58,074 nucleotides of DNA. It comes from a virus (taxonomy: Duplodnaviria > Caudoviricetes). Position 1 is the first letter of the stretch. Every line of letters begins with the position of its first letter. The translations under genes and the position numbers were made by a program. Under the pieces are notes generated by a model. It did not search any database. It saw only the letters and a list, made by a program, of their open reading frames with translations, and was not told the origin of the DNA. This document shows positions 9,385 through 32,517 of this stretch, one piece after another. The stretch covers positions 1 to 58,074 of IMG/VR virus record IMGVR_UViG_3300025120_000055. One strand, given 5' to 3'.

Positions 9385-10538
9385 TGACGCAGTATGTAGG
9401 TGTAATTCGTAAAGAATTATCGGCTGTGATGACTCCACAAGGGCCACAAATGCAACAGAATATTGGAGGTAATAATCCAGTAGACATGAAACCTGACCAA
9501 TTTGGTCAGATAGGAGTTAGAAATCAAAGAGCACATCAAGAAAAAAATCCTCAACCTGTGGGAACAGGTAATGTGTTGTTATATGATGCAGAAAATAACC
9601 CTACCTCACGAGTGCCTGATGCTATGGCAACTAGAGCAGTCGAAGAAAGAGCAAGAAAAAGAGGTGGAATTGGACAAAAAATAGGTCAAGGTATTGGTGG
9701 GGCGATAGGTGTTATGGGTGGGTTAGTTAGTCTTGCTAATGCTGGTGCTGCTGGTCAAGATGCTATCAGTGGTGGAGTTAATGCTTATCAAACAGGTCAA
9801 TATCTTACTCAAGAGGCTAAACCTAGACTTGGAAATCTTGTCGGTACTATTGGTGCCCATACAGCACTTCCTGTAAGAGTTACAAGAGAAAAAACATCTG
9901 ATGTAGCACCTATGGTTGCCTCTCCTACTAACACTCCTGCTGCTACTCCTGTTGCCGTTGCTGCGCCGACTGCACCGTTACCTACTGACAAAAGAAAAGT
10001 TCTTGGTGTTGATAACTATGAAGGAGCACAAAAAATACAACAAGAGGCTATGAGTATGTTAGGAAATCCTCACTATAATGCTGGAGCGTTTAGTGCAGTT
10101 AACACTACTGATGACCAAGGTAGGACTGTAGGTGTGCAGGGTGCTGGCCCTGCTCAAAATCAATATGACCCTACGGCTATTAATCCAAACCAACTCAATC
10201 CAATTACACCAGCAGGAACACTTCGACTAACTAAACCGGATGGCACTGCTTATCAATCCCCACAACAGGTGGCTATTACTAAACCTACAGTTGCTCAGCC
10301 AACCACACAACAAGACCCCGGCAAAGTGATAGCGAATGAACTGGGCACAATTCAACAATCCCTACCGCTACCTGACCCCAATGAACCAACAGATGCCGAG
10401 AAAACAATAGAATCTAGTGCACAGACTGGTAAAACGATAAGCGACGCTCTTAAGATAAAGATGTTGAAAGCAGAAATTTCAGGTCGTCGGGCTGCTTACG
10501 ATTACTTTACTAAAATGTTTATCGAGGTGAAACCATGA
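9384..10538 (+). CDS. Hypothetical protein with glycine-zipper hydrophobic segment; putative ejection/pilot protein
   Basis: GGIGQKIGQGIGGAIGVMGGLVSLANAGAAG segment; P/T/Q-rich remainder. Confidence 0.6.
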   Translation: MTQYVGVIRKELSAVMTPQGPQMQQNIGGNNPVDMKPDQFGQIGVRNQRAHQEKNPQPVGTGNVLLYDAENNPTSRVPDAMATRAVEERARKRGGIGQKIGQGIGGAIGVMGGLVSLANAGAAGQDAISGGVNAYQTGQYLTQEAKPRLGNLVGTIGAHTALPVRVTREKTSDVAPMVASPTNTPAATPVAVAAPTAPLPTDKRKVLGVDNYEGAQKIQQEAMSMLGNPHYNAGAFSAVNTTDDQGRTVGVQGAGPAQNQYDPTAINPNQLNPITPAGTLRLTKPDGTAYQSPQQVAITKPTVAQPTTQQDPGKVIANELGTIQQSLPLPDPNEPTDAEKTIESSAQTGKTISDALKIKMLKAEISGRRAAYDYFTKMFIEVKP

Positions 10539-12019
10539 GCAAGCGTGAAGAAGAAAAGCAGATGAAAGAACTCATCGTTGAAATGGATACTAAAATGTCC
10601 GAGCGCTCTTTCAAGTATTTCTTTGAAACAGTGTTAGATTTTGATTATGCAGGGCATCACCAATCTTGGAATGATGGTTTAGAAAACAACCGTTACTACT
10701 GTGTTAAAGCGAGTCGTGACCACGGTAAATCTGTATTCTTTATGTCCTATGCTCTTTGGTTAGCGGCTTTTAAACCTAATACTCATATCATGATTTTCTC
10801 ACACTCTCTTGAACAGACATTGGAACACATGCGTTTTATTCGTAATAATATAGATGCTGCTGCTTGTCTACAACATCTCAAACCAAGTGGTATACCATGG
10901 AGGAAAACATACTTCGAGTTTACTAATGGTAGCCGTATTATGGCTAAGTCGGTTGGTGGAGCAACTCGTGGTTTCCACCCTGATGTAGTAGTATGTGATG
11001 ACATTTTATCAGGGACAACTGGTAGTGAATTACAGCGTGCTGCTGATTGGTTTTACGGTGTTCTTCTACCTGTTCTTCACCACGAAGGAAAACTTATGAT
11101 GGTAGGAACTCCGTTTAGTTACAACGATTTGTATGCTGAGTTAGAAAGAAAAGAAACATTCCAAGTGGAGACTTATCCCGCTATCAATAAAGAAGGTGAA
11201 CCCTTATGGCCTGTTCGTTGGAGTCTTGAAGCACTAGAACAAAGAAGATTATCTATGCCAGCAATTCAATTTACTCGTGAGTATCTGTGTGAACCAATTC
11301 ACGATGTAGCGAGTATGTTTCCAATGACTATACTTGAAAAGGCTCGTGATAGAGAACTGGTTTTACTTGACCATGCTGAAAATGAATACGATGCTAATGG
11401 TGACGCTACAGGTATTTTTGGTCATCATTTTATTGGGTGGGATACTGCGATTGCATCTGACAAGAATGCTGACTTTACCGCCATGACTGTTTTACGACAA
11501 CCACCTGATGATAATGTAAAACAAATAGTTGGTATTGTACATGAGCGTGGACTGAGTTCTGTAGCACAGAAGCGACAAATTATTTTGTTGAATCAAAGAT
11601 TTCAACCTGATTTGATTGAACTTGAAGGTAACAATTTCCAGCGTATGTTTGCTATGGAATTAAATGAAATGCGAGAAGATATTCCTATTAGAACATTCAT
11701 GACGACTCGTACAAGAAAGGAAAGTCTCTTCATGTCATTACTCATGGCTTTTGAACAGGGACATCTTAAAACACCCTATGGTAACGAGAAGAGTAGAATA
11801 TTTACTCACAAATTAGAAGAAGAATTGAACAGGTTTGGTATGCAGAAAAACGGTAGATTAGAGAGTGTAGGAGTACATGATGACTTGGCTATGAGTTTAG
11901 CCTTGGCTAATTGGGCAACCAAAGAATTTAGAGGTTCAATTGTAATGTTAGATGATATTTTACCCGGTCTTGATAATATCATAACCGGCAGAAGTAACGG
12001 CGGATGGATGATACCATGA
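10535..12019 (+). CDS. terL: Terminase large subunit
   Basis: Walker A ASRDHGKS, RG..PDVVVCDD Walker B, VGTP coupling motif, PLWP..W, F..EYLC, nuclease acidic residues in IGWD, ELEGN and HDDLAMSLALA. Confidence 0.96.
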   Translation: MSKREEEKQMKELIVEMDTKMSERSFKYFFETVLDFDYAGHHQSWNDGLENNRYYCVKASRDHGKSVFFMSYALWLAAFKPNTHIMIFSHSLEQTLEHMRFIRNNIDAAACLQHLKPSGIPWRKTYFEFTNGSRIMAKSVGGATRGFHPDVVVCDDILSGTTGSELQRAADWFYGVLLPVLHHEGKLMMVGTPFSYNDLYAELERKETFQVETYPAINKEGEPLWPVRWSLEALEQRRLSMPAIQFTREYLCEPIHDVASMFPMTILEKARDRELVLLDHAENEYDANGDATGIFGHHFIGWDTAIASDKNADFTAMTVLRQPPDDNVKQIVGIVHERGLSSVAQKRQIILLNQRFQPDLIELEGNNFQRMFAMELNEMREDIPIRTFMTTRTRKESLFMSLLMAFEQGHLKTPYGNEKSRIFTHKLEEELNRFGMQKNGRLESVGVHDDLAMSLALANWATKEFRGSIVMLDDILPGLDNIITGRSNGGWMIP

Positions 12020-12687: not shown

Positions 12688-13602
12688 ATGACTGATGTAA
12701 ATATTTACGAAGTTGGCCCTCGTGATGGTTTACAGAATATTACTGAAAACACTCCTACTGATGATAAAATTTGTATGATACAAAGACTACATTATGCTGG
12801 GTTAAAAAATATGGAAATCACATCATTTGTACATCCTAAGTTAGTTCCTAACATGGCAGATGCTGAGGAAGTATTTGCCGCTACTAAAGACATTGATGAC
12901 TTCAGTGTTCTAGTTCCTAATCAAAAAGGACTCGATAGAGCAAAAGCCGTTGGTGCTAAAAAATTCAATGTATTCTTTTCTCCTATTGAATCATTTAATA
13001 AAGCAAACTTGGGCACAGATATGGATACTTCTATTGATAATATTTCTACTATGTTAGGTGATATTGATAGAGAAAGTGTTAGGGCTTACATTTCTTGTGC
13101 ATTCGGTACTACTACTGAAAAAGTCAATGAATATAGACTACTGTGGGCTATGCAAGCAGCAGATAACTTTGCAGACACTGTAGTTTTATGCGACACAGTA
13201 GGTATTGCTCATCCTTCGTCTATGACTAGAACATTAGAACTTTCAAGACACATTGATGCTAACATAGCACTGCATCTTCATCACACTAAAAATAAAAGAG
13301 ATAATATGTTTCCTAATATTCAGGCTGCTTTAGATTGGGGTATCACTGAATTCGACGCTAGCATAGGTGGTCTTGGTGGTTGTCCTTTTATGAAGGGTAG
13401 TGGTGGTAACTTATCTACTAACGACATGGTAAAGTATCTACATAAAAATAACTACGAAACAGGACTAGAAATATGGGAATTAAACGCTATTGCTAATTCT
13501 TATGCTGAAGAACAAATAATACCCTTTACACCAATGAGACTTAGAGTGCGAAATAAGTTACAAGAAATCATAAATAAATCGCCTATTGGTAGCAAGTGGT
13601 AA
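12688..13602 (+). CDS. hmgL: Hydroxymethylglutaryl-CoA lyase (DRE-TIM metallolyase); auxiliary metabolic gene
   Basis: IYEVGPRDGLQN, SFVHPKLVPNMAD, CDTVG, metal-binding HLH, GGLGGCPF with the conserved Cys, GNLST. Confidence 0.93.
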   Translation: MTDVNIYEVGPRDGLQNITENTPTDDKICMIQRLHYAGLKNMEITSFVHPKLVPNMADAEEVFAATKDIDDFSVLVPNQKGLDRAKAVGAKKFNVFFSPIESFNKANLGTDMDTSIDNISTMLGDIDRESVRAYISCAFGTTTEKVNEYRLLWAMQAADNFADTVVLCDTVGIAHPSSMTRTLELSRHIDANIALHLHHTKNKRDNMFPNIQAALDWGITEFDASIGGLGGCPFMKGSGGNLSTNDMVKYLHKNNYETGLEIWELNAIANSYAEEQIIPFTPMRLRVRNKLQEIINKSPIGSKW

Positions 13603-13612
13603 ATAGGTCAAT

Positions 13613-14860
13613 GTGGAGGTCAAATATATGTGGGGTTCGGCTATGATTGAAGATGACTTTGGTGAGGTCTATACCCACACCCCTGTTTCCACTGAAGAAA
13701 TCAAATCAATTAAAAAACAGCATCATTTTGCACCAAACGGTGATGGTTGGTTTGAAGCATCACTTGGATGTAATGCGGAAACTCTTGTAAAAAGATTAAG
13801 AAAAGCAAGAAGAAACAACAAAGACAATCGTAGTGAAATTGATAATTTCATCAATGATGTTAGGATGATTAAATCATTAGAAACTAATATGACAATCAAA
13901 TCTTTGTCTTGGGCTGAACCTTATGAAGACACTATCAAACAGTTAGGATTAAATGACCGTAAACTCAAAAGTCTTCGTAAGTTTGGTGAGACACGCTCTT
14001 TGAATCTCGAAAGAGCATGTATGATGTGGGATAAGGCAGAATTAACTCTTAAAATGCTAGATGAGCATGAAGATGTATGGGGTGCAGAAGAACAACAGGC
14101 TTGGGCTTCTGCTATGCAAGATAGAAGTTCTGCTAGAAAAATGTGGTCTAATTCACTTCATCCAATTGACAAACTTAGCAAGGCTGAGAAGAATTTTTTA
14201 GAATTTGCCTCTCAAGAATTACTCGAAAAAGGCCCAATGAAAGTAACTACCATTCGTAGTAATTTTTCCGATGCTGGTATGCTTAAAAAATCTCAAACTG
14301 ATAGAAAACTCGCTACACTCATGAACATGTATGGTGAAGATATGGATATTGTAAAAGGAGCACTACGAGGAACTTATGTTCGTATTTCCAGTGATGGACT
14401 GGTGTTAAAAGATGTGTGGTCTTATAGTGCTGGTTTTATTGATGCTGACGGATACATTACTATCACTGAGCGTGGTGAACCTCGTGCTGGAATGATAGCC
14501 ACAGGTGATAGAGGAAAAGTTCACTGTGAAGATTTGTACAAAACGCTAGACTGTGGTGTACTTTCTACTGATAATAAAGTGTACAAAGATTCTCAAAGAA
14601 GTCAACATAGATTACAATTCTATTCTAAGGCTGACTTGCGAAAGTTACTTCATGGGGTGTCCCCTCACTTAAAAATGAAGTCTACTCAAGCAAAGGCTGT
14701 ACTAGCCTATATTGATGAAAAAGATAAAACTAGAAAGCAAGAATTAAAACGCTTAGTAAGATACGAAAATTGGAAGGATGATAAGCGAAAATCTAACGCT
14801 TTGTTACAAGAATGGGGAATTGACATGGATACTATTGGTAAATACGGAGAGGGTCTATGA
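13613..14860 (+). CDS. Protein with C-terminal single-motif LAGLIDADG endonuclease domain and uncharacterised helical N-terminus
   Basis: WSYSAGFIDADGYITI ... HRLQFYSKADLRKLLHGVSPHLKMKSTQA (I-CreI-like layout); not inside an intein or intron. Confidence 0.8.
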   Translation: MEVKYMWGSAMIEDDFGEVYTHTPVSTEEIKSIKKQHHFAPNGDGWFEASLGCNAETLVKRLRKARRNNKDNRSEIDNFINDVRMIKSLETNMTIKSLSWAEPYEDTIKQLGLNDRKLKSLRKFGETRSLNLERACMMWDKAELTLKMLDEHEDVWGAEEQQAWASAMQDRSSARKMWSNSLHPIDKLSKAEKNFLEFASQELLEKGPMKVTTIRSNFSDAGMLKKSQTDRKLATLMNMYGEDMDIVKGALRGTYVRISSDGLVLKDVWSYSAGFIDADGYITITERGEPRAGMIATGDRGKVHCEDLYKTLDCGVLSTDNKVYKDSQRSQHRLQFYSKADLRKLLHGVSPHLKMKSTQAKAVLAYIDEKDKTRKQELKRLVRYENWKDDKRKSNALLQEWGIDMDTIGKYGEGL

Positions 14861-16647
14861 TGGCTGAAGAAAATCAAAGCATCGTTAGTAGATTTTTGTC
14901 TGCTCTATCAAGTCCATTTAGAAGAAGAACAACTCCTCAACCTCAGATGCCGTTGTATACTACTGGTATACAAGAGCCAGTTTTAGCACAAGGTATTACT
15001 TTACCAGCGCTCTATGCTGTCTCAAATGAAAATTTAATTCTCAGAACTGTTATTACAAAACTTGGTCAAGAAGTATTCCGTAGAGGTTACTACTGGGAAA
15101 AGAAGTTTCGTATGAAATGTGTTGAATGTGAAGAAGAGTTTCAACATGAAGTTGATGAATGCTCGACCTGTGGTGGAGAAGTTCGCAAACCTAACCCCGA
15201 CCAAGTATTGTATCCTAAGTGGTTACTTCAACAAGAAAACTCTATGGAACAAAGTTTTATGCAAATCCTTCATGAGATTGAGCGTGATTTGAATGTTGTA
15301 GATGATGCATTCTTGTTAATGATTAAAGAATACTATGTAGATGAAAAGACTGGTGAAGTACAATTCTATAGAATAAAAGAGTTAATTCGTGGTGACCCAA
15401 TCTTTATGCGAATTATCGCTGATAAGCGTGGTGTTCGTGGTGGGCGATACAAGATTTGTCGTATCCATCGTGACCAAGTTGCTTATCCGGGTCAAGAGCC
15501 AAAATGTAAAATATGTAACTCTCGTTTAGTTGATGCTCACTATGTTAACATGGCGGGTTCAGGTAAGAATCAATATTTTATGAAAGGTGAAGTTCTCCAT
15601 GTATCAAAATATAATCCGGGTAAATTATATGGGCGTGCTCCAGTAAACACGCTATGGCGACAAGCCATGACTCTTACTGCTATGGATAATTATATCTATA
15701 CTGCGTATCAAAAGCGTAGAATACCAAAGGGTATTGTGAGCGTCACTACAGATAATCTCGAATCTATGAAGTCTTTTTGGAAAGGCGTTGATGAAAAAAT
15801 GGAGCGTGACCCACACTACATTCCTAAAGTTGGTATCGAATCTTCTTCAGGCCGTGGTGGTGTGAACTGGGTCAAGTTTATGGATACACTTGAAGAGATG
15901 CAATACATAGCAGTGCGTGATGAAATAAGAAATCGTATTGCTGCTTTTTATGGTGTGTCTTCTATCTTTATGATTGATAATGGTAAATCAGGCGGTCTGA
16001 ATAACGAAGGTTTGCAGATTCTTGTAACTAATAGAGCAGTTGAATACGGACAAAAAGTGTATACAGATTTATTATTCCCTAGAATGTTGCGTGAATTAGA
16101 TGTCACTGATTGGAAATTAACTCTATATCCAAACGAAGAGGAAGATGAAATTACAAGACTACGCCGTGATGAAATGGAAGTTAATCTTGCTCAAAGAATG
16201 GCTATGCTTGGATATCAGCCTGAATTGTTAGAAGAAGGAGATAGAGATGTTAGGTTTAGTTACAAAAAGAAACCACCACAACCTGAAGGTCAACAACCAC
16301 AAGGTCAACCTCAACCACAAGGTCAACCTAGACAGGCTATGCCACCACAAGGTGGTATGCCTCCTAGACAGGCTATGCCACCTAGACAGGGTATGCCACC
16401 ACAAGGTGGTATGCCTCCACAAATGATGCAAGGTGGTAGAATGCCTCCACAAATGATGCCTCCATCACAGCCCGGAGGAGAGGGGATGGGAATCCGCACT
16501 CCACGCTCTCCGGCACGACCTCAACAAAGAGGTAGTCCGGGGGCGGGTGCACCTGTAACTAGTGTACAACAAAGAGGACTCCCTCCTAATATCCAACAAC
16601 AAAACAGTAGAACAATCCAAGATAGCAGACGCCTTAGAGGGGCGTAA
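14857..16647 (+). CDS. Portal protein with Zn-ribbon insertions and P/Q/G/M-rich C-terminal tail
   Basis: ERDLNVVDDAFL, GEVLHV...LYGRAPV, IPKGIV, RNRIAAFYGVS portal motifs; position between TerL and protease. Confidence 0.9.
   Translation: MMAEENQSIVSRFLSALSSPFRRRTTPQPQMPLYTTGIQEPVLAQGITLPALYAVSNENLILRTVITKLGQEVFRRGYYWEKKFRMKCVECEEEFQHEVDECSTCGGEVRKPNPDQVLYPKWLLQQENSMEQSFMQILHEIERDLNVVDDAFLLMIKEYYVDEKTGEVQFYRIKELIRGDPIFMRIIADKRGVRGGRYKICRIHRDQVAYPGQEPKCKICNSRLVDAHYVNMAGSGKNQYFMKGEVLHVSKYNPGKLYGRAPVNTLWRQAMTLTAMDNYIYTAYQKRRIPKGIVSVTTDNLESMKSFWKGVDEKMERDPHYIPKVGIESSSGRGGVNWVKFMDTLEEMQYIAVRDEIRNRIAAFYGVSSIFMIDNGKSGGLNNEGLQILVTNRAVEYGQKVYTDLLFPRMLRELDVTDWKLTLYPNEEEDEITRLRRDEMEVNLAQRMAMLGYQPELLEEGDRDVRFSYKKKPPQPEGQQPQGQPQPQGQPRQAMPPQGGMPPRQAMPPRQGMPPQGGMPPQMMQGGRMPPQMMPPSQPGGEGMGIRTPRSPARPQQRGSPGAGAPVTSVQQRGLPPNIQQQNSRTIQDSRRLRGA
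16327..16416 (+). repeat. Five tandem 18-bp units encoding P-[RQ]-[QG]-[AG]-M-P in the portal tail
   Basis: cctagacaggctatgcca / ccacaaggtggtatgcct / cctagacaggctatgcca / cctagacagggtatgcca / ccacaaggtggtatgcct. Confidence 0.9.
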
Positions 16648-16692: not shown

Positions 16693-17037
16693 ATGGACTT
16701 ACTAAAAATGAATCCGATGGCTAGAAAACTAACTGTTCACACAGATGCATTTAACAAAGCATTAGAGAGCAGCGACCCATTTGCAGCACAGCAACATCTT
16801 AATGAAATTATGAAGTTTGCTGGATTTCTAAATGATGATATTCATGCTGCTGTTAAAAAAGCAGAATTACATGTTGGAGTTGTTCAACCGGGTGAAAGTA
16901 CAATATTAAAAATGAATAAAACTGGTCAGAAAAAAGGCACTTCAAAAGGTGCTGTTCTTCCCGGTACAATTAGGTCATCTCGTGTGGGTAATGGTTTCAC
17001 AAAACACTCCGGTACTTTTGGCCGCTATTCTCAATGA
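16693..17037 (+). CDS. Hypothetical protein, putative head protein
   Basis: 114 aa; MDLLK N-terminus; GAGG RBS. Confidence 0.65.
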   Translation: MDLLKMNPMARKLTVHTDAFNKALESSDPFAAQQHLNEIMKFAGFLNDDIHAAVKKAELHVGVVQPGESTILKMNKTGQKKGTSKGAVLPGTIRSSRVGNGFTKHSGTFGRYSQ

Positions 17038-17047
17038 AGGTGAATAA

Positions 17048-17395
17048 ATGAGTGAAGAATCTGTTGCTGAGCGTTTAATGAATGCTCTAATAACAAAAAT
17101 GGAAAATATGGATTCCGACCTCCAAGTAATAAAAGCCGAAAACGCTCGACTAAAACAAGCAGTGAAAGACCCTATCACCATGTTAAGAAAAGCAGGTTTT
17201 GTTTCTGCTGCCACACCATTAAGTCAAGATGTCTCAACTGATGGATTTAGAGGAGATGTAGGGGTGGAAAACAACATGGATTCTGCTCTACTAAAAAGCC
17301 AAAACGAGTATACTAACAATGAAATCCACCTAATGTCGTGGGAAGAAATTCATGAAATGGCTGAACAAGCCAAATCAACCGAGGTGATACAATGA
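17048..17395 (+). CDS. Small coiled-coil protein, scaffold-like paralogue
   Basis: AAGGTGAATAAATG start context; N- and C-termini resemble the scaffold region of 23613-25001 (MSWEEIH vs MTWEEVH). Confidence 0.7.
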   Translation: MSEESVAERLMNALITKMENMDSDLQVIKAENARLKQAVKDPITMLRKAGFVSAATPLSQDVSTDGFRGDVGVENNMDSALLKSQNEYTNNEIHLMSWEEIHEMAEQAKSTEVIQ

Positions 17396-18144
17396 AGCCA
17401 ATACCATCCCTAATAAGCAGACAAGCCCTAGACCTAATGAACAAAGCACAAGAACTAAGTGAAAGAATTAACATTTTCAAAGGAAAAGACTGTTGTTCTC
17501 AAATGACCAAGATGGGAACTTGTAAAAGTAGTTGTAATTCTATGGATAAAGATAAGAAAGATAAACAATTTTCTATTGCTGACTCTTTAGCACAAGATGC
17601 TGGTAAAGTTGCACCGGATGAATTTATGCCGGGAAGAAATATGCCAAAATTCAAACCCGGAGAAGATGCTAAACCCATGGGTGAAGCAGCAGAACTAGGA
17701 GGTAAAAATGAAAAACCTGAAAAAGAAATCTCTACTAAGCCAAGCGAAGGAAAACCTCGTGACCAAAAGCGTGGAGAAGCAGGTCGTGGTGTAAAGGTAA
17801 AGCGCCCCGGTTTCCGTGGTACTGAAGCCATGCCCTTAACTGATGCATCCGCTACTGGAACTAAAATGGAAAAAGCAGTAACAGAAGGCTCTCAACCCGG
17901 ATTTACTACAGCCTACGATTCAACACCTCAAGGTGTTATGTTTATGTCTGAAACTGGTGGTCAAACAAGAAACGCCTACTACACTACAAATCAATATCCA
18001 TACAACGCTCAAGATGTCGCTAACAAAGGTGCTACATCAGTGCAAGTAAGTCTTGACAAATTAGCCTCTATGTTGAACCCGCATGAAGGCGGAGGAGTCA
18101 GCCGTCTTGATGATGGCGGGGTATTGAGAGACAACCCCTATTAA
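17392..18144 (+). CDS. Hypothetical low-complexity protein, putative head protein
   Basis: 250 aa; GAGGTGAT RBS; IFKG and MEKA motifs flank a charged linker. Confidence 0.65.
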   Translation: MKPIPSLISRQALDLMNKAQELSERINIFKGKDCCSQMTKMGTCKSSCNSMDKDKKDKQFSIADSLAQDAGKVAPDEFMPGRNMPKFKPGEDAKPMGEAAELGGKNEKPEKEISTKPSEGKPRDQKRGEAGRGVKVKRPGFRGTEAMPLTDASATGTKMEKAVTEGSQPGFTTAYDSTPQGVMFMSETGGQTRNAYYTTNQYPYNAQDVANKGATSVQVSLDKLASMLNPHEGGGVSRLDDGGVLRDNPY

Positions 18145-18156
18145 GGGGGCGATTGA

Positions 18157-21100
18157 TTGATTGAAACACCTACTGACTGGTATTATAGAAGTAGAAATGA
18201 ACTTCTAAAATCTGTGTTAGACGGCCATGATTGGTTAAACTCATTAGGTGAGTATAAATTTGCTAAGATGAATTTAGAAGCACACAATGAGATAATACCA
18301 CAAACGACATTAGATGATATAACTAACTCTATTCTAAAAGCAGCCAATGAGCAAACTTTTGAAAGAGGCGCTGAAATGCGCTTAGGTTCACATCCTTGGC
18401 AGAATAGAGTTCGTGAAAGAGTCTTACATGAAGTAGCGGCGTCGTATCCCCATGTTGAGTTTGCACAAGGCCAGCACTTTGCTGAATCTCATCCTCATCA
18501 TCCGAAGCATCACCCTCTTCGTCAAAAAAATACCATCACTGGTAGGTCGAAAATGATAGAAAAATTAAGACAATTCTACTTACCTTCTGCACCGGGTGAA
18601 AGAAGTTTGTCATACGACTATAAGATGGCTGAAAGAGGGAAAGAACAGTTAGAGCGTAAAAATGAAAATCCTTCTGTTATAGGTAAAAAAAGATTCGACA
18701 CTAACGAAAATAAAGAAGTAGAACATCATAATTTCTTAGGCCCATTAAATGACCATTATCTACATGATATTTATTATGATAATTTTTTGGAGTGGCAAAG
18801 AAATAATCCTGACACTGTAAAAGAAATGATAGAAAAGTTTCCTAAACCGGAAGAACATGAGCATGCTTTACAATTAAAACACTTTGAAGAGTTTGCTGAT
18901 AGTTTAGAGAGTGACCAAAATCATGGGACACTTTACGACCCAAAAGAAAATTTAACTGAAGCAGAAATTCAAGAGATAACATATAGTGGTGATTTTGAAT
19001 CTTTAACCCCTTTTCCAATTAAAGAAGGTTTAGGTTATGATGGTTACTTGTATGGTCTTGAGTTTCTTCCACCTATTGATAGATTCAAAGTGCTAAAACA
19101 CCTTCATGAAAAAGGAACAGATGCTCATGATGCTCAAACTATACAACTATCAAATGGTAAAACAATAAGTGCTGGTAGGATAAAAAGAAATCTTGCTCAA
19201 CGATTTACTGGTGAGTTTGACCGCTATATGCGACCTCAACACATGCATGGAGCGAATGTTAAGAAACACTATGAAACAATAGATGACGACCCAAGAGATA
19301 GCGATAGAGTCATGAAGCAATCATTACTCGATGCTATGAGATTAGTTCCTCATGAAGAAGGTAGCACTATTAGTGTATACGATAAATTACTAGAGCAGTA
19401 TAATACTATGTTGAATAATCATAGAGATGAGGGTACAGAAAGTAGTCTTACTCATTTACCAATTAGAGGAATGATGCAAGGTAGAAAAATAAACAAAGGT
19501 GCTATTCAGCACCCAACTAGTCATGGAGAAGGTATACTTCAAGAATTACAAACTTTAGATGATGACCCGTTTACATTTACAGATTTGAATACTATGTTAG
19601 GTTTGTTAGGATACAATAGTGACATGACTGCTATGGATAATCATCCGTTATTACTAGACTTTGAAAACCCGTTGGTAGACCATGATAAAGTAAAAGAAAT
19701 TATCATGAAGGCTCAAGATATGTCGCAAGTATATCAACAACAAAAACCAATTCGTAATCACGATTTCTTCCATCATGGTGGAAAGAATGGCCCTGATATT
19801 AACGATATTCCTGAAGAAGAAAGAGAGCATTACCTCACAGATGACGAAGGTAACATCATAGGATTAGGGGCACACTTTGCTGATGAGTTCCATCATCAAG
19901 GTGGTATGGGAAGAAATGTTTTACATTACTTAGAAATGATGCACGACTCTCTACCAAAAGACAATAATGGGTATTCTATTATTGGTAGAGTAGATGGAGG
20001 AGAATTAATTCCTAATCCAAAAACAGTAGGACTATGGGGAAGATATCTCCCCTCATTATTTTCTAAAGATAGTGGAACTCATCAAGGCCCACACGGTATT
20101 TCATCTCTTTGGGACTCTTCTAGTCATATAAGAACTAAACCAAGAAATAACAAAAATCTACCTCATAGGCAAATGTCGTCTTTGATAGGTGGTTATACTA
20201 ACTTAGTTAGATATATGACTGATAATGAAAGAAAACAATACTTCAGTGTAGGTCAATCTAACAGGGGAGAGTTAGGTGGTAGGAATTTCTTTACTACAAA
20301 TCCTATCAACGCAATAGGTGGTAAGGGTGGTAAGGCTACTCAGACCATAAACAATCAAATCCACAGTGGGAGATTAATTACTTCGGGTGGAAGATATCAT
20401 CCGCCTCATGAGCCAATGAAAAAGAAACAACGCCTTGGAAGAAAAGATATCCGTGCTGATTCAAAATTAGCCCATAGTGAAGGTAACTTAACAACATACA
20501 GAACTATACAAGGGCATAAGAAATTAGCAGGTAAAGATTTACCTCTTACTAATCAACAACAACAACAAATTGATGAATTAGACCAAAAGTATGATGAAAT
20601 AAGTAATATAATAATGAATTTTGAAGAAGGTTCTGAAGAATATGGTAATCTTAATTTTCAATTACATGATATAGAAGGTAAAATTGAAGAAATAAATAAT
20701 CAGGCTGCTAAAGAGAATAAAAATTCCTATAATCAAATATCTGATAACGCTCAGATAAAAGATGAAAAAGACCATGAAGCCATAATGATTATGGCGAAAA
20801 AATTAAGACCTGAGTTTTTGAAGAAAGACCCTGATGCGTTTAATCCTGAGATGCCTGACAAGTTCTTAGCCAACACTTCTCGTTTGATGAGAGATGCTAA
20901 TATGGCTTTATTGAGATTACCTCATTCGGTACATGGACTATTTACTCATGGATATGGAGAATATGAAGATGTTCATCAAAGCGCTGCTGAGTTATTAACA
21001 GATGATGAAGATGAAGTTGTATCACCACATCACACTATTGCTAGTGTTCTAGGTAATGCTGGTAAACTAATTGAACCTACCATGTCGCTAGCAAAAGTTA

Positions 21101-23571
21101 GAGAGTTACTAAATTTACCTGATGATGATGCACATAATGATATGATTGAAAGATTGTTAGAAGGTCGAATGTCTCCTGTTAAAGTTTTAAAACACGGTGA
21201 TTTGTTAGGCACTGGGGTTAGTTTTGCTGGTGAAGAGGCTAACAGTATGTTTACTACAGACGACCATCATTCAGTAATAAATGGTATATTAGATGAGCAT
21301 ATTTCATCAAGACCTCACCACACTGATTATTCTCGAAGGGCGAGTGCTGACAAAAAATTCGGTAGAAACTTAGGTGAAAAATATGCAAAACATCTTGGCT
21401 TAATAGACAGATTGTTTAGACCTAATCAACAAAACCAATTAGACATGCATGGTTTATCTCGTGTTCAATTATCTCATCGTGATGGTGAATATGGTACAGG
21501 TAAGAATGCGCTTGGAGCAACAACAGGCGATATAGATGGGCCAGTAAATAGAGCCAAGAGTTTAGTTCATGACCTTTATTTGTTCGACTCTCAAGAAGCA
21601 CAGACCATGGATAAAGTAGTCGCCCCTGCTACAAAAGTCAAACTGGCTGGTTATAGGTCACAACCTATTCACCCAGCCACTTCTACAGGTGCATCAGTTC
21701 AAGACATGTATATTTCAGGTGGTATGGATAGTGGATATCCAATGACACCATCAGTCGGTATGGAGTTCCCCGGTAACAAAAAGGCTGTAGCCGGAACAAA
21801 TACAGAAGAGCAATTCTTACATTCTATCCCTGAAGAAGTGATGAATGACCTCCATGGTGAAGAGGCCGTGCAACAGGTCTTATCATCTAATTATCAAGTT
21901 CCAGTTAACACTACTAATATGAGTAGAACAAATGTAATGGCGCTACCAGCCAACTCCGATATGTCGTTGTTTACAGCAAGCGACCCTACTGAAACTCTTA
22001 CCGTATTGATGAATCCTGAAGCATTGTTAAAAGAAGATAAATCAAAACCACCACCCATTCTACCTATGCATAGAATATTTTCTTTGAAAGATTTTGATGC
22101 ACTTAGAGGATTTAGTGGGGATTGGGTTGTATCATCTTTCTATGATGGTGAGAGAATGATAATCACTAGAAAGAGTAACAAAGTTTCTGCTTACGATGAA
22201 AGTAACGATAATGTAATGTTAACTACTGATGATAAAAAACACTTGAAAGCACTAACTGAGAAAAACTTCATGGTAGACGCTGTTAGAATGAAAAACAATA
22301 TCCATCTCATAGATATCCTAGAATATGATGGGACTAACATAGCAGATATGACCGTAAAAGAGAGATTGAAAGTTCTTCGAGGTCAATTTGACAGTCATGA
22401 GCATGTATTAGTTCCCAGCCCGTTTGATACAAGAATTACTGAAGATGGTGGTTTAAAGTCTACTGTTGAGAATTTACAAAACGAACATAAGCAACTATTA
22501 CTTCGTGATGCTAACTCTACATACATGCGTGGTGAGCGTAGACATCCTAAGTGGTTTTTACTTCGTAAGAACAAGAATGTTAGTTTCATTATATTAGATG
22601 TTAGAGGTAAAGGCCCGTACACTTATCGCTTAGGGGCAGGGCCACTTGACTCCGAAGGCTTTGGTAATAGAGGTGTAGATTATGAAGGTAAACAATATCT
22701 TGATGTTGGAACAATCAAAAGCCCTAAGCCATTCAACGAAGGTGATACTGTGTCTATATCTGTATCGGGTGTTAAGAAAAGAAATCGAAATGGTAAAACA
22801 TTGTATGATGTAACCTCCTCAAAGATAGTAGGAGAAGCAGAAGCAGAAAGCCCTGCGAGCCTAGAGACTCTATCTTTACTAGCAAAATCCCACCCTGTGA
22901 TACCAGTGGTGTATGATATAGTCCTCAAAGAAAATGAAATATCAGTCGTTTTTGAGGGGTTAGACGAGGTAGTTTACAAAGCAGAATCATCTCATACTGG
23001 TAATTGGGTACACTCTCCTAAATCAATAATAGGTGAATTAAGTCATTCTGATTATACTTTACAGTTGGCTGAAAGCGTTAGACCACTATGGAGTCAGGCT
23101 GTATCTTTGATGTTAAAAGGTGTGGATAAGAAAAAAGATAGTGTAGTTGAAGAGATTATTCCTCAACCCACATATCATTCAATGCATGATAAGAAAAATA
23201 GAGAACATAGTGAAGAACAGTCACATGGTATAATAGATGCTGATGATGAGAAAAACCTACTCAAAGTAAAGATGCTAAAGACTCTAAGTAGAATAGCAGA
23301 TTTTTCAGATAGAATTGATGCTTTACAAAAAGAAAAAATGTCAGGTGGCCCCGGTGCTCGTGGTATGGGTATCAATGTTGGAAGCGCTATAGAATCACCA
23401 AGAGGCCCAACTAGTCTTACCAGTGAAGAGAGTGTACCTGATTGGGATATGATTGAGCGACCAACTGAAGACCCCGAAGAAGAATACCCAATTGCCATGA
23501 TGAGGAGACTTAAGCAGAAAAATGCTAAGCAGTCTCCTACTTATGAAGCAGAATCAGATTATGAGGCATAG
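18157..23571 (+). CDS. 1804-aa multidomain protein with degenerate ATP-dependent DNA ligase (adenylation + OB) domain near the C-terminus
   Basis: WVVSSFYDGER, IDILEYDGTNIADMTVKERLKVL, LLLRDANSTYMRGERRHPKWFLLRK, then an OB-like region (YRLGAG...YLDVG); His-rich N-terminal ~1290 aa unassigned. Confidence 0.8.
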   Translation: MIETPTDWYYRSRNELLKSVLDGHDWLNSLGEYKFAKMNLEAHNEIIPQTTLDDITNSILKAANEQTFERGAEMRLGSHPWQNRVRERVLHEVAASYPHVEFAQGQHFAESHPHHPKHHPLRQKNTITGRSKMIEKLRQFYLPSAPGERSLSYDYKMAERGKEQLERKNENPSVIGKKRFDTNENKEVEHHNFLGPLNDHYLHDIYYDNFLEWQRNNPDTVKEMIEKFPKPEEHEHALQLKHFEEFADSLESDQNHGTLYDPKENLTEAEIQEITYSGDFESLTPFPIKEGLGYDGYLYGLEFLPPIDRFKVLKHLHEKGTDAHDAQTIQLSNGKTISAGRIKRNLAQRFTGEFDRYMRPQHMHGANVKKHYETIDDDPRDSDRVMKQSLLDAMRLVPHEEGSTISVYDKLLEQYNTMLNNHRDEGTESSLTHLPIRGMMQGRKINKGAIQHPTSHGEGILQELQTLDDDPFTFTDLNTMLGLLGYNSDMTAMDNHPLLLDFENPLVDHDKVKEIIMKAQDMSQVYQQQKPIRNHDFFHHGGKNGPDINDIPEEEREHYLTDDEGNIIGLGAHFADEFHHQGGMGRNVLHYLEMMHDSLPKDNNGYSIIGRVDGGELIPNPKTVGLWGRYLPSLFSKDSGTHQGPHGISSLWDSSSHIRTKPRNNKNLPHRQMSSLIGGYTNLVRYMTDNERKQYFSVGQSNRGELGGRNFFTTNPINAIGGKGGKATQTINNQIHSGRLITSGGRYHPPHEPMKKKQRLGRKDIRADSKLAHSEGNLTTYRTIQGHKKLAGKDLPLTNQQQQQIDELDQKYDEISNIIMNFEEGSEEYGNLNFQLHDIEGKIEEINNQAAKENKNSYNQISDNAQIKDEKDHEAIMIMAKKLRPEFLKKDPDAFNPEMPDKFLANTSRLMRDANMALLRLPHSVHGLFTHGYGEYEDVHQSAAELLTDDEDEVVSPHHTIASVLGNAGKLIEPTMSLAKVRELLNLPDDDAHNDMIERLLEGRMSPVKVLKHGDLLGTGVSFAGEEANSMFTTDDHHSVINGILDEHISSRPHHTDYSRRASADKKFGRNLGEKYAKHLGLIDRLFRPNQQNQLDMHGLSRVQLSHRDGEYGTGKNALGATTGDIDGPVNRAKSLVHDLYLFDSQEAQTMDKVVAPATKVKLAGYRSQPIHPATSTGASVQDMYISGGMDSGYPMTPSVGMEFPGNKKAVAGTNTEEQFLHSIPEEVMNDLHGEEAVQQVLSSNYQVPVNTTNMSRTNVMALPANSDMSLFTASDPTETLTVLMNPEALLKEDKSKPPPILPMHRIFSLKDFDALRGFSGDWVVSSFYDGERMIITRKSNKVSAYDESNDNVMLTTDDKKHLKALTEKNFMVDAVRMKNNIHLIDILEYDGTNIADMTVKERLKVLRGQFDSHEHVLVPSPFDTRITEDGGLKSTVENLQNEHKQLLLRDANSTYMRGERRHPKWFLLRKNKNVSFIILDVRGKGPYTYRLGAGPLDSEGFGNRGVDYEGKQYLDVGTIKSPKPFNEGDTVSISVSGVKKRNRNGKTLYDVTSSKIVGEAEAESPASLETLSLLAKSHPVIPVVYDIVLKENEISVVFEGLDEVVYKAESSHTGNWVHSPKSIIGELSHSDYTLQLAESVRPLWSQAVSLMLKGVDKKKDSVVEEIIPQPTYHSMHDKKNREHSEEQSHGIIDADDEKNLLKVKMLKTLSRIADFSDRIDALQKEKMSGGPGARGMGINVGSAIESPRGPTSLTSEESVPDWDMIERPTEDPEEEYPIAMMRRLKQKNAKQSPTYEAESDYEA

Positions 23572-23612: not shown

Positions 23613-25001
23613 GTGCTACGAACAAAGCGGAGAGAACTTGAACTGCTCAAAGGGTCTAACGACCTTATTGTTGCAGGTTATGCCTCAGTTGAACTAGTAG
23701 ACAAACAAGGAGATTTAATTACAAGGTCAGCATTGAAAGACGCTTTCAAAAAATTCATGTCAGACCCCATGTACAGGAATGTTCAATTAGCGCACTCAAA
23801 TATTCAAGTTGGAGAAGTAATATCAAATTATACTGACAATCAAGGGAGGTTATGGAAAAGCGAAGTTGACGATGCTGGAATGTTTGTTGTAGTAAAATTA
23901 CGAAACGACATTGAGAAAGCACGAGAAGTAGCATCCGAGATACGAAAAGGAAATCTAACAGGATTTAGTATCGGAGGTCAAGCATTCAAAAGAGTTAACA
24001 AAAGCGATAAAAACCATGGCTCTTATCAAGAAATCTCAAAATTAGAATTACACGAAATAACAATATGCGAAAAAGGAATAAACCCGGAAGCCACATTCAA
24101 TATACTAAAAGAAGATAAAAAAAACAAGGTGAATAAAATGACTGATGAAGTAATGGAACAAATGAACGATGTACTAACCCGCTTAGAAGGGCGACTTGAC
24201 TCTATGGAAAAAGGTGAAATGCCACCCGGACTCAAAGAGCACATGAAGAACAAAAAAGGTAAGAAAGACCACGACGATGACGACGATAAAAAAGACGACA
24301 AAGAGAAGGGTAACTACATGAAAGATGAAGATGACGACGATAAAAAAGACGGCAAAAAGAAGTCTGAATATTCTGATGTTATCACTGCTGAATACCTAGA
24401 TTGGATGGAACATACTCTAAAGTCTGCTGGTGTTGACACTGGCGCTGCTCGTACTCACTTTGATACAGTAGCAAAAGCAAACCTTGGTTCTACCCCTGAA
24501 GATATAGGAGACGGTGCTAACTACTTTGCAGGACAAGTAAAAGGTCGTGTTCAAGAAGGTGGCAGCCCATCTACCAACGCTATCCAGCGTGCTGGTCTAA
24601 GTGGCAAAGGTGGAAAAGTTGAGAAATCTGATTTCATTAACGCTTCTCAAGTAGATTCTCACAGATTAGAAGAAGCATACGGTGTCTTTAAGGCTGCAAA
24701 GCAAGAAGAAGAGTTCCGTAAGTCTCTTGAACAGAACTTTGAGGGTCGTTTCGCACAAGAAAATCAAGCAGAAATAGCAAAAGCACAAGCACAAAACTTC
24801 GACGCTCGTGCTCCTCTTGATGAAGTTATGAAGGCTCTTGGGGCACTCAATGACCGAATCGACAACATCTCTAGCGGTGCTGGCGAAACAATCGCAAAAT
24901 CTGCTGGTTCCAATGTTGAAGTACCAAGTACACAAGACTTGGCTAACATGACATGGGAAGAAGTACATCAACTCGCTGGAGGATTATACCGAGGCGAGTG
25001 A
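23613..25001 (+). CDS. HK97-type prohead protease fused to scaffold protein
   Basis: IVAGYASVELVDKQGDLI, LAHSNIQVG (catalytic His), GFSIGG (catalytic Ser), LELHEITICEKGINPEATF; charged coiled-coil C-terminal half. Confidence 0.93.
   Translation: MLRTKRRELELLKGSNDLIVAGYASVELVDKQGDLITRSALKDAFKKFMSDPMYRNVQLAHSNIQVGEVISNYTDNQGRLWKSEVDDAGMFVVVKLRNDIEKAREVASEIRKGNLTGFSIGGQAFKRVNKSDKNHGSYQEISKLELHEITICEKGINPEATFNILKEDKKNKVNKMTDEVMEQMNDVLTRLEGRLDSMEKGEMPPGLKEHMKNKKGKKDHDDDDDKKDDKEKGNYMKDEDDDDKKDGKKKSEYSDVITAEYLDWMEHTLKSAGVDTGAARTHFDTVAKANLGSTPEDIGDGANYFAGQVKGRVQEGGSPSTNAIQRAGLSGKGGKVEKSDFINASQVDSHRLEEAYGVFKAAKQEEEFRKSLEQNFEGRFAQENQAEIAKAQAQNFDARAPLDEVMKALGALNDRIDNISSGAGETIAKSAGSNVEVPSTQDLANMTWEEVHQLAGGLYRGE
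24138..25001 (+). CDS. Putative nested in-frame scaffold protein
   Basis: In-frame ATG at 24138 preceded by AAGGTGAATAAA, just after the protease domain ends. Confidence 0.6.
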   Translation: MTDEVMEQMNDVLTRLEGRLDSMEKGEMPPGLKEHMKNKKGKKDHDDDDDKKDDKEKGNYMKDEDDDDKKDGKKKSEYSDVITAEYLDWMEHTLKSAGVDTGAARTHFDTVAKANLGSTPEDIGDGANYFAGQVKGRVQEGGSPSTNAIQRAGLSGKGGKVEKSDFINASQVDSHRLEEAYGVFKAAKQEEEFRKSLEQNFEGRFAQENQAEIAKAQAQNFDARAPLDEVMKALGALNDRIDNISSGAGETIAKSAGSNVEVPSTQDLANMTWEEVHQLAGGLYRGE

Positions 25002-25006
25002 AACTC

Positions 25007-25044
25007 AGGACAATAAAAAAAAATATGGAGAGATAAATATGGCA
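25007..25044 (+). promoter_or_regulatory. Conserved leader/RBS, copy 1 (before MCP)
   Basis: aggacaataaa...atggagagataaatATGGCA; the 20 nt at 25025-25044 are identical to 26235-26254. Confidence 0.75.
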
Positions 25045-26211
25045 AGAAATTATGTAAGAACAGTAACAGACATGGAAAGATACTACTACGGAGCAGGTAA
25101 CTCAATGGGCTATACCTACACAGGAAGCGAACTATTGAAGTCCGATGCACCAATGCTCAGCACAACTGCTGGAACATACCAAGCAATCTACGGTAGAAAA
25201 GTTTGGTCACAACTAAACCAAGAATTTAACGCATTTTCAATTCTACCTAAGAAACCATGGGAAAGAAGTGGATGGAGAGTTATCACAGCAAAGCCAAACG
25301 GTGGAGCAGTTCACGGTGGAATAGCAGAAAACGGTACACTACCTGAAACTGTCAAACCAACCTTCCAACATGTAGCAGCAAAACCAAAGACAATCGCTCA
25401 CTCATTCGATGTAAGCGAAGTCGCAGTATTCCTTGCTGACAAAGATGACGGTATGGGTGACATGCGCTCAGTTCTAAAAGAAGAAATGGGTAAGCACCAC
25501 GCTGAAATGGTTAACCTAATGCTACTACAAGACACCAGCACAGTCGCTGGAAACAACTTTGAATCACTTGACAGAATCACTGCCGGTGACGGTGCAGGAA
25601 CAGGTCTAACTGGTCTAAGAACTACTGGCGGAAACGAGCATGTAGACGCAGCAGCAGACCTAGATATCTACAGTATTGACCGAAGTGCAAACGCTTGGTC
25701 ACATGCTGAGGTAAACTGCGCAGCAGACACTCAAGCAGCAAACAAGCGTGTTCTATCATTAGACCACCTAGACACAATCTTCCAACAAGTTTGGGAGCGT
25801 GGTGGTAATCCAAAGGTTATCCTAACTGGATATGATACTCTAATGAGACTACAACAACTTCTACAAGCACAACAAAGATTCATGGAAGAGAAGAGAGTTA
25901 CACCAACCTACAACGGTGTTAAGGGTGTTCCGGGTATTGAAGCCGGTTTCATCGTAGCAACCTACAATGGTGTACCAATCATCCCATCTAAGGATGTTGT
26001 CGATGCTGACGGACTAAGCAGAATGTACTTACTAGACACTGACTACATGTACTTCAGTACAGCAATACCAACTCAATACTTTGAGTCCGGTATCGAAACT
26101 GGTGACCCATTCGCAATCAACCGCCTCGGTCAAGAGGGACTTTACCGAACAATGGGTGAAATATGGACTACTTTCTTTGGAGCACAAGCAAGCATTCGTG
26201 ACTTGAAGTGA
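25039..26211 (+). CDS. Major capsid protein (HK97 fold)
   Basis: Directly after protease/scaffold; 390 aa; LPKKPW, GIAENGTLPET E-loop, FESLDRI, TYNGVPIIPSKDV, MYLLDTDY; high-expression codon bias. Confidence 0.93.
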   Translation: MARNYVRTVTDMERYYYGAGNSMGYTYTGSELLKSDAPMLSTTAGTYQAIYGRKVWSQLNQEFNAFSILPKKPWERSGWRVITAKPNGGAVHGGIAENGTLPETVKPTFQHVAAKPKTIAHSFDVSEVAVFLADKDDGMGDMRSVLKEEMGKHHAEMVNLMLLQDTSTVAGNNFESLDRITAGDGAGTGLTGLRTTGGNEHVDAAADLDIYSIDRSANAWSHAEVNCAADTQAANKRVLSLDHLDTIFQQVWERGGNPKVILTGYDTLMRLQQLLQAQQRFMEEKRVTPTYNGVKGVPGIEAGFIVATYNGVPIIPSKDVVDADGLSRMYLLDTDYMYFSTAIPTQYFESGIETGDPFAINRLGQEGLYRTMGEIWTTFFGAQASIRDLK

Positions 26212-26254
26212 GGACAATAAATAAATAATAAAACATGGAGAGATAAATATGGCA
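26211..26254 (+). promoter_or_regulatory. Conserved leader/RBS, copy 2
   Basis: aggacaataaa...atggagagataaatATGGCA duplicate of the MCP leader. Confidence 0.75.
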
Positions 26255-26659
26255 GCAGAATTAACAATTACAGGAACAGCAGCAGGAAACGCAACAATAG
26301 TTGGAGCATGGGAACTTAGAGCAGGGTCACACGACACCACAGAATACTTGGCTCGTGGTGGAACATACCCGGGTAACATCAACGCATTTGCACCCTTAAA
26401 CGGTGACGACTCCACTTCAGGAGACGCAGCAAATGGATACGACCCAGCACCTAAGATGGCTTTGATTACACTTGGTTCAACCACTGACGGACAAACAATC
26501 GTTCTAGGTGGAGGAGCAACCAGTATCCTATCACACATAGTATCCGGTGGAACAGCAAACAATGGTCAAACTATTGGCGGTAACCACACTGGACTTACTA
26601 TTACATTTGAAACAACAGGAACTGTAACAAGCGGTCAATTAGTAGTGTTTTACAACTGA
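26249..26659 (+). CDS. Putative capsid decoration/cement protein
   Basis: T/G/A-rich beta-type 136 aa; same leader and codon bias as MCP. Confidence 0.65.
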   Translation: MAAELTITGTAAGNATIVGAWELRAGSHDTTEYLARGGTYPGNINAFAPLNGDDSTSGDAANGYDPAPKMALITLGSTTDGQTIVLGGGATSILSHIVSGGTANNGQTIGGNHTGLTITFETTGTVTSGQLVVFYN

Positions 26660-32507: not shown

Positions 32508-32517
32508 GGTGACTATC

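Follow-up and report, generated by a model that had tools for sequence, protein, structure and literature searches.

Why should a small protein encoded among the head genes of a tailed virus end in the same peptide as a scaffold encoded several kilobases further along the genome? The question is raised by ORF115, an open reading frame (ORF) of 115 amino acids (aa) at 17048-17395 (+ strand, open throughout, stop codon included) in the head module of the 58,074-base stretch of virus DNA analysed here (IMG/VR record IMGVR_UViG_3300025120_000055, hereafter the window). Its counterpart is a 462-aa protein specified by 23613-25001 (+), in which a prohead serine protease of the S78 type is fused to a long C-terminal scaffold domain. 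The original prediction regarded ORF115 as a mini-scaffold paralogue. The answer favoured here, at a probability of roughly 0.6 and on grounds of sequence, model and analogy, is that ORF115 would be small and dimeric and would work as an auxiliary scaffold or adaptor, borrowing the coat-docking peptide of the scaffold as CpmB does beside the scaffold of 80alpha.

The C-terminus of ORF115 is ...NNEIHLMSWEEIHEMAEQAKSTEVIQ and that of the protease-scaffold is ...STQDLANMTWEEVHQLAGGLYRGE, with the motif Met of the latter at 24948; the terminal peptide common to them can be written [ML][ST]W[ED][ED][IV]Hx[LM]A. In ORF115 the putative docking module is residues 90-106 (17315-17365, +), made up of NNEIH as a short helix, an LMS turn and WEEIHEMAE as the start of helix 98-113, and within it the core motif is M96-A105 (17333-17362, +), the invariant residues being N90, H94, W98, I101, H102 and A105. 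The corresponding module of the scaffold (24897-24977, +) runs from K254-S255 through VPSTQDLA, with its short helix 265-269, and an NMT turn to WEEVHQLA, the start of helix 273-284. Its core motif occupies 24948-24977 and its residues K254, P263, T265, M271, W273, V276, H277, L279 and A280 are invariant in 25 sequences.

That the two termini match, as had been claimed at the outset, is upheld by every test applied to it. The patterns M[ST]W[ED][ED] and W[ED][ED][IVLM][HQ] each occur twice in the six-frame translation of the window, and in each case both occurrences are the tails of ORF115 and the protease-scaffold. BLASTP of the one protein against the other gives an E of 0.002 over MSWEEIHEMA/MTWEEVHQLA, while under a 21-column hidden Markov model (HMM) of the motif the two ORFs obtain 42.1 and 40.9 bits, against 3.6 for the next ORF of the window. 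When the last 28 residues of ORF115 are compared with 266 ORFs by Smith-Waterman alignment the protease-scaffold is top (46 vs 34), and comparison of a profile of 51 ORF115 relatives with one of 25 scaffold domains gives an E of 6.6e-7 and a probability of 92% over 35 columns, the upstream invariant Lys included. The likeness of the tails is real and far beyond chance, and on this sequence evidence the C-terminal modules, of ~35 columns, are homologous.

The word paralogue consequently fits a C-terminal module of ~35 residues and not the N-terminal and middle parts, in which no scaffold homology was detectable. The original prediction had also seen a resemblance between the N-terminus of ORF115 and that of the scaffold at its internal start. 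Local profile comparison of these N-termini gives a probability of 0.75% and an E of 0.075, in a register other than that first proposed, and everything upstream of the tails (ORF115 residues 1-85 against scaffold residues 1-255) gives an E of 0.37; paralogy at the N-terminus is rejected on these figures.

Homologues of ORF115 number 123 at E<=0.01 in a 90%-clustered collection, and the family is a narrow one, since of 1.84 billion sequences that represent 50% clusters only 58 match it at E<=1e-3. Comparison with Pfam and PHROG families gave no match at E<=0.01, either to a described scaffold family or to an enzymatic domain. Both tails are visible in 77 of 81 sources (80 loci and the window), the remaining four being loci in which the protease gene is absent or truncated. 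In an enlarged set both are present in 108 of 118 sources and one in the other 10, with at least one in all 118 (three 'triple' counts in this set came from a spurious 0.1-bit second match in the same ORF). A further clade (loci L129-L171, reached via P0131), whose ORF115 and protease are respectively ~35-43% and 47-52% identical to those of the window, has both tails in 24 of 44 loci, and each distinct pair listed keeps Wxx[IV]Hx[LM]A, so that the peptide is retained at identities as low as ~35-40% for ORF115 and 47-50% for the protease-scaffold; for P0129 no relatives were found in IMG/VR. The Trp, Ile/Val, His and Ala are invariant in the alignment of each family while the flanks vary. The motif is strictly conserved in orthologues of both proteins, in more than 130 related magrovirus-like genomes, and the conservation in related viruses on which the original prediction had been hung is thereby found.

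In five related genomes that are 95-100% complete, the strict motif, back-translated, is present exactly twice per genome, 7.5-7.9 kb apart, and 0 times in the reversed control. The two copies have not been kept alike as nucleotide sequence. Their 30-nt cores are identical at 17-24 of 30 positions, and where the residues of the two copies are identical the same codon is used in only 191 of 449 instances, and one gene, for example, encodes Ser by TCA where its counterpart has AGT. Gene conversion was considered as a source of the likeness and rejected because the codons of the two genes differ, and for the same reason selection at the protein level is what keeps the tails alike. Orthologues of ORF115 have the same position in all 118 virus sources and in the five 95-100% complete genomes, which is not the distribution of a satellite or mobile element.

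An AlphaFold2 model of ORF115 from the family alignment (mean predicted local distance difference test score, pLDDT, 71.5) has a helix at 6-40 with pLDDT of ~95 for residues 11-30, short helices at 42-48 and 57-61, disorder over 62-89 with values below 50 for residues 69-85, and then the tail, in which helix 90-94 is joined by the three-residue turn L-M-S to helix 98-113. The N-terminal helix (17063-17167, +) has M11, L14, M18, M21, L25, I28, N32, L35 and V39 at the a and d positions of its heptads. Over 51 sequences these columns read M, L, M, M, L, I/L, N, L and V, with N32 present in 47 and gapped in the other 4. A buried Asn at 'a' marks parallel dimers, as in GCN4, and residues 6-40 are predicted to form a dimerising coiled coil. 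Next comes a central motif, (N/D)PxxLLRKAGFVxxxTPLSxDVxxDxFR, at residues 42-68 (17171-17251, +), in which P42, G50, D65 and R68 are invariant and which is kept in a distant group of relatives considered below.

Between the central motif and the tail, the variable and disordered linker holds one invariant residue, K83 (51 of 51 sequences), which with S84 (17294-17299, +) aligns with K254-S255 of the scaffold. In both proteins an invariant Lys followed by Ser or Gly is 12-18 residues upstream of the Trp, within variable disordered sequence, and hydrophobic-x-K-[SQ] is present in both proteins of the distant group. The HK97 protease cuts its capsid protein between Lys and Ser, and by this parallel K83-S84 is a candidate maturation cleavage site.

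The tails of ORF115 and the scaffold have the same local build in the AlphaFold models, in which five residues of helix lead through a turn of three into a second helix that starts at the Trp; an [ST] or D preceding the Trp, with acidic residues following it, would fit a helix N-cap and capping box. With its a/d-heptad helix carrying an Asn at 'a', its disordered linker and its lack of an enzymatic domain, the modelled ORF115 would have the build of a small scaffold. By sequence no relative better than E 0.024 was found for it in the PDB, the weak matches (E 0.036-1.6) being to GpsB, GCN4 and NEMO coils, and Foldseek of the model against the PDB gave 0 matches at E<=10. The ESM Atlas has its own family alone at >=0.95 and, as a weak lead, the phi29 Scaffolding_pro cluster at 0.76 (15% of members). 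Complex prediction with one monomer of the major capsid protein (MCP; 21-row alignment) and ORF115 residues 80-115 gave a score of 0.00 (mark 0.32) with controls not run, and counts neither way.

The partner gene contains, over residues 15-168 of its product, a PF04586 match of 41.9 bits (cut-off 21, E 1.5e-10), and also matches the PHROG head maturation protease. Within it an internal Shine-Dalgarno sequence, AAGGTGA, precedes an in-frame ATG at 24138 (24126-24140, +), the candidate start of a nested 287-aa scaffold. A start codon is aligned with this position in 25 of 25 genomes (24 ATG, 1 GTG), and the purine-rich Shine-Dalgarno-like run upstream of it is kept though the residues that it encodes vary (K-V, E-M, E-V, E-D, G-D). 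Because start codon and run are conserved despite the changing residues, the 3' portion of the protease gene probably also gives rise to a nested scaffold. The gene thus has the two marks of an S78 protease-scaffold fusion, a Peptidase_S78 match above the Pfam cut-off and a conserved in-frame internal start. An AlphaFold2 model of the scaffold domain (mean pLDDT 63.6) shows helices 2-24, 30-42 and 84-117, a Lys/Asp-rich disordered stretch at 41-80, a 70-residue helix at 174-245 and then the tail, with helix 265-269, the turn N-M-T and helix 273-284.

The start of ORF115 and that of the nested scaffold had been said to share their context. The 12-mer AAGGTGAATAAA is indeed exact at 17037-17048 and 24126-24137, with no other mismatch-free occurrence in the window, and supplies ORF115 with a Shine-Dalgarno-like AAGGTGA (17037-17043, +) 4 nt ahead of its ATG. 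It is not an element specific to these two genes. GGTGA is ahead of 9 of the 39 listed ORF starts of the window, and the relatives retain the Shine-Dalgarno core, with a similar purine run upstream of the start of the ORF115 orthologue in 28 of 31 loci, and do not retain the spacer of the 12-mer; the shared context is for these reasons a generic strong ribosome-binding site. A second pair of near-identical ribosome-binding contexts is present in the head module, where the MCP gene (25025-25044) and the gene following it (26235-26254, gene 26249-26659) have the start context ATGGAGAGATAAAT-ATGGCA in common.

What such a tail would do is suggested by systems in which scaffold termini have been studied. 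CpmB of SaPI1 is a 72-aa dimeric helical protein that has only a C-terminal motif in common with the 80alpha scaffold gp46, and the tails of the two have almost identical structures beside the N-arm helix of the capsid protein and compete for the site, according to the part of PMC5644958 drawn on here. Like CpmB, ORF115 is small and, by prediction, helical, and its profile matches that of the scaffold (E 6.6e-7) in no more than the final 35 columns, everything ahead of these being unrelated. Unlike ORF115, which is the virus's own conserved gene with fixed synteny, CpmB is described there as satellite-encoded, hijacking a phage and shrinking its capsid. Its motif, again as there described, is a basic RIIK hook, whereas that of ORF115 is an acidic Trp-His helix-turn-helix, and there is no sequence homology between them.

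For P22 the helix-turn-helix at the C-terminus of the scaffold is reported to be essential for coat binding (10.1101/2022.12.13.520362, in the part available). The arrangement here resembles that of scaffolds of the P22 gp8 type, as far as that account goes, in that a helix-turn-helix is predicted for the extreme terminus of a protein that would be elongated and helical and whose gene is next to that for the capsid. In the P22 scaffold the C-terminal domain is basic; unlike it, the tail here is acidic, and no sequence relation to the gp8 domain is detectable. By analogy, and within the limits of these accounts, the terminal motif is placed where, in 80alpha/SaPI1 and P22, the coat-binding segment of the internal scaffold is found.

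Nested protease and scaffold genes with a common C-terminus are a feature of lambda (C/Nu3) and herpesviruses (UL26/UL26.5). As in these, the protease gene here has a conserved internal start, so that protease and scaffold would carry the same tail. Unlike them, in which a single reading frame is involved, ORF115 is a separate gene 7.6 kb upstream with its own diverged copy of the tail.

Terminal peptides that target proteins to a shell of HK97 fold are a further parallel, one of them being the capsid targeting sequence of T4. The cargo-loading peptides of encapsulins are another (PMC8229669, as excerpted). Like these, the tail here is a short terminal peptide, on otherwise unrelated proteins, that would direct them to the interior of an HK97-fold shell. 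The difference, as far as the accounts of those systems extend, is that each near-complete genome (5 of 5) has only two proteins with the peptide and that ORF115 is without an enzymatic domain, for which reasons it looks like an assembly factor rather than cargo. A loose pattern of the N-terminal type gave 19 matches against 6 in the control, with 10 of the 19 being the two known sites, and no ORF start in the window was Met-x-Trp; an N-terminal MSW tag spread over many proteins is not present in this lineage.

Put together, ORF115 would be a protein that acts inside the head during its assembly in a tailed, magrovirus-like virus of archaea, dimeric through a parallel coiled coil at its N-terminus and composed beyond this of the conserved central motif, a flexible linker and a C-terminal helix-turn-helix, (N)xE[IF]H-xM[ST]-Wx[ED][IV]Hx[LM]A. 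The same module would end ORF115, the protease-scaffold and the nested scaffold, and would be the handle by which ORF115 and the scaffold dock on the inner face of the MCP while the procapsid is being built. ORF115 would thus occupy scaffold sites and then be removed or released at maturation, possibly through a cut at the conserved K-S that immediately precedes the module. The N-arm of the MCP carries Arg3, Arg7 and Arg14, and a charge match between it and the acidic tail of ORF115 is conceivable. That the tail is a docking handle is the best-supported reading, and it draws on conservation, predicted structure and analogy with the systems just described.

Several results weigh against it. The first come from the distant group (loci L119-L128, reached via P0166 and P0173, with 7 of the 10 loci holding both genes), which is ~49% identical to the window in portal, 59-62% in MCP and 33-34% in protease, and has the gene order of the window, the ORF115-like gene included. 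Its small protein ends ..RHDELEEWKEAER.. or ..SETLHEWKEMEKAM.. and its scaffold ends ..PTHDEF-AMGNG-DGW-A-E-LA..; neither tail has retained the His, and both retain a helix with the Trp as well as the stretch H-[DE]-E-[LFY], with spacing that differs by seven residues. In this group the protease tail is not among the top 4 for the small-protein tail in Smith-Waterman comparison, the small-protein tail HMM scores nothing on the protease, and profile comparison yields a coiled-coil match only and no shared tail. Because no test finds a shared tail there, sharing of the motif is demonstrated within the large group to which the window belongs, and does not extend to every relative. The named virus nearest to it, HVTV-1, has neither an ORF115-like gene nor the motif. 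Further, the small proteins of group 1 and group 2 match in profile over columns 14-88, which is the N-terminal helix and central motif (E 1e-11), so that the deepest conservation in ORF115 is found in its N-terminal and central parts and not in the tail.

The remaining points concern co-variation. Ser follows Trp (W-S) in both proteins in two independent clades, and in one of these Asp precedes the Trp in both; the variant MDWSEIH is on both proteins in loci L083-L088. On the portal tree the independent contrasts available for W-S (2 of 2) agree in direction. As a point in favour this joint change is suggestive only, since with two independent contrasts a sign test cannot reach 0.05. In the L129-L171 clade the residue before the Trp is G, D, N or E in ORF115 and Ser in the protease, without co-variation. 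Over 101 rows the MCP has 0 columns that set the two W-S clades apart, whereas one portal column (residue 15, S to D/E) separates these clades from the rest, as does one column of orf114. Column tracking in MCP, portal and orf114 is given little weight either way.

Two observations were made alongside these comparisons. In L120-L126 of the distant group the coiled coil of the small protein at 17-42 resembles the last coiled coil of the scaffold at 175-200, the E-N pair included (hhalign E 1.3e-4, probability 54%); it is treated here as coiled-coil likeness, though a descent of the 'mini-scaffold' from the C-terminal third of the scaffold could be the alternative. HVTV-1 (L081), unusable as an outgroup as it has neither gene nor motif, has a shared peptide of its own in a related head module, VY[VI]xSPxEAPE..V..G..GG.[FW]Y, which is at the N-terminus of the 1,313-aa 'zeta toxin' of gene 115 and at two sites in the product of gene 116 and is unrelated to the Trp-His tail.

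Since the tail is less deeply conserved than the rest of ORF115, the core job of the protein is perhaps elsewhere than in the tail, and an adaptor role has to be weighed on that account. ORF115 would then be a dimeric adaptor and not itself a scaffold: its deeply conserved N-terminal and central part would grip another head component, either the portal or the 1,804-aa protein encoded two genes downstream, its exchangeable tail would plug this load into the scaffold sites of the MCP, and K-S would be cut later, as the M-site cut frees the scaffold of herpesviruses. This is a tentative possibility; if true, the capsid of an archaeal virus would have in ORF115 a loading adaptor that is both natural and modular.

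A binding partner other than the MCP is the next consideration. The shared peptide might bind the portal, with both proteins docking at its vertex so that assembly is nucleated or the portal is positioned. The ORF115 gene comes two genes after that for the portal, portal residue 15 separates both W-S clades from the rest, and scaffolds are known to contact portals (PMC12005531, in the portion used). One variable column among ~600 can, however, easily arise by chance, and in the solved cases, so far as the two accounts cover them, it is coat protein that the extreme C-terminus of the scaffold binds (PMC5644958; 10.1101/2022.12.13.520362). A protease-scaffold present in many copies would also hardly depend on 12 portal subunits for its sole terminal handle, and docking on the portal is on balance unlikely.

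Alternatively the two tails could bind each other, ORF115 being a partner or regulator of the protease-scaffold that, for example, keeps the protease inactive or bridges scaffold dimers. In the models both modules are amphipathic helix-turn-helices with the same hydrophobic face, and direct contact would also explain the joint Ser of the two clades. Pairing of the acidic helices WEEIHE and WEEVHQ would, however, be electrostatically unfavourable, and the L129-L171 clade shows no co-variation at the position ahead of the Trp. We know of no precedent for tail-to-tail pairing of a scaffold and a small protein, and such pairing is distinctly unlikely here.

Very unlikely in its turn is that the module is a recognition or cleavage signal by which the prohead protease would degrade both proteins after assembly, rather than a docking handle. 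Both must leave the head, proteases of the HK97 type cleave at defined sites, and the invariant K-[SG] upstream of the motif stands, in both, in a linker that is otherwise variable. Yet a cleavage signal need not be a terminal helix-turn-helix of 20 residues, and K-S is separable from the Trp helix, as it persists in group 2 while the Trp motif diverges; a cleavage function would in any case be compatible with docking on the MCP. Least credible is that the tails share no partner, a capping box and amphipathic helix having arisen twice or an old duplicated fragment having been kept for folding. In its favour are the shortness of the motif, the generic nature of S-x-x-E after a turn as a capping box and the difference between the tails of the distant group. 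Against it, the Trp, [IV], His and Ala of either family stay unchanged across more than 130 genomes in which the flanks vary, and the copies number exactly two per genome and are both at the extreme C-terminus of head-assembly proteins.

The reading in which ORF115 docks on the MCP by a tail that it shares with the scaffold would assign a putative role to a conserved gene of unknown function and points to a predicted nested scaffold within the protease gene. It also defines a candidate docking peptide of ~20 residues, which could serve to load proteins into the shell of an archaeal virus, and adds a case from such viruses to the idea of the scaffold tail as a portable address.

Of the viruses of ocean archaea, magroviruses rank with the most abundant, and to our knowledge no magrovirus has been cultured. 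The accounts in PMC11706807, PMC10160649 and PMC5434244 name capsid protein, portal, protease and terminase and, in the portions drawn on here, mention no scaffold protein. In such main text as was available, the word 'scaffold' occurs 0 times in PMC11706807, 0 times in PMC10160649 and once in PMC5434244, where assembly scaffolds are meant. By analogy, sharing of a scaffold tail by a small protein would be a known trick, met here in a new group of viruses whose head assembly is known only from gene names.

The window has a G+C content of 40% and its long ORFs are all on the + strand. The MCP gene (25039-26211, +; HK97 fold, no delta domain) matches PF17236 and the PHROG major head protein, and its product has a mean column identity of 84% among 21 relatives. 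The only named relatives of this MCP in the phage collection are HVTV-1, HCTV-1, HCTV-5 and close haloarchaeal siphoviruses (32-34% identity) and one Methanofastidiosa virus (28%). Magroviruses are, in the part of PMC5434244 used, ~100-kb viruses of Marine Group II archaea with an MCP that is 33% identical to those of haloviruses only. Because the MCP relatives show the same pattern, the window appears to be part of a magrovirus-like genome, a placement by likeness and not by taxonomic assignment.

The head-morphogenesis module is arranged in the order portal (14857-16647, +), orf114 (16693-17037), ORF115, orf250 (17392-18144), the 1,804-aa ORF (18157-23571), protease/scaffold and MCP; this order is kept in relatives, in which ORF115 is 6.0-6.9 kb upstream of the protease gene. 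The portal matches phrog_18178 (E 1.6e-63) and, under the cut-off of 39.1, PF04860 at 33.5 bits, and has 455 relatives in IMG/VR. Outside its Pfam-matched core, the C-terminus of the portal (16270-16560) is a long low-complexity run rich in Pro, Gln, Gly and Met (PQGQPQPQGQPRQAMPPQGGMPPRQAMPP...). The single family signal in the 1,804-aa ORF is a weak one, to the ATP-dependent DNA ligase adenylation domain PF01068 (residues 1370-1466, 23.1 bits, cut-off 26.2); the counterpart in the distant group, of 1,154-1,182 aa, matches the same ligase-like region, and the product may be a packaged enzyme.

Upstream of the module, between the large terminase gene (10535-12019) and that for the portal, is an HMGL-like gene of the pyruvate carboxyltransferase type (12688-13602; PF00682, E 1.8e-25). 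It is followed by a 415-aa ORF (13613-14860) that gives, in its C-terminal part, a match (E 1.7e-8) to a PHROG with the annotation HNH endonuclease, and this region just ahead of the portal gene may be a homing-endonuclease insertion. Two features of the tail region are a single 6,068-aa ORF (36221-54427), with a weak Laminin_G_3 match near its N-terminus and no other, and a 187-aa ORF (32476-33039) that has a SAP DNA-binding domain (PF02037, E 3.5e-10), unusual among structural genes.

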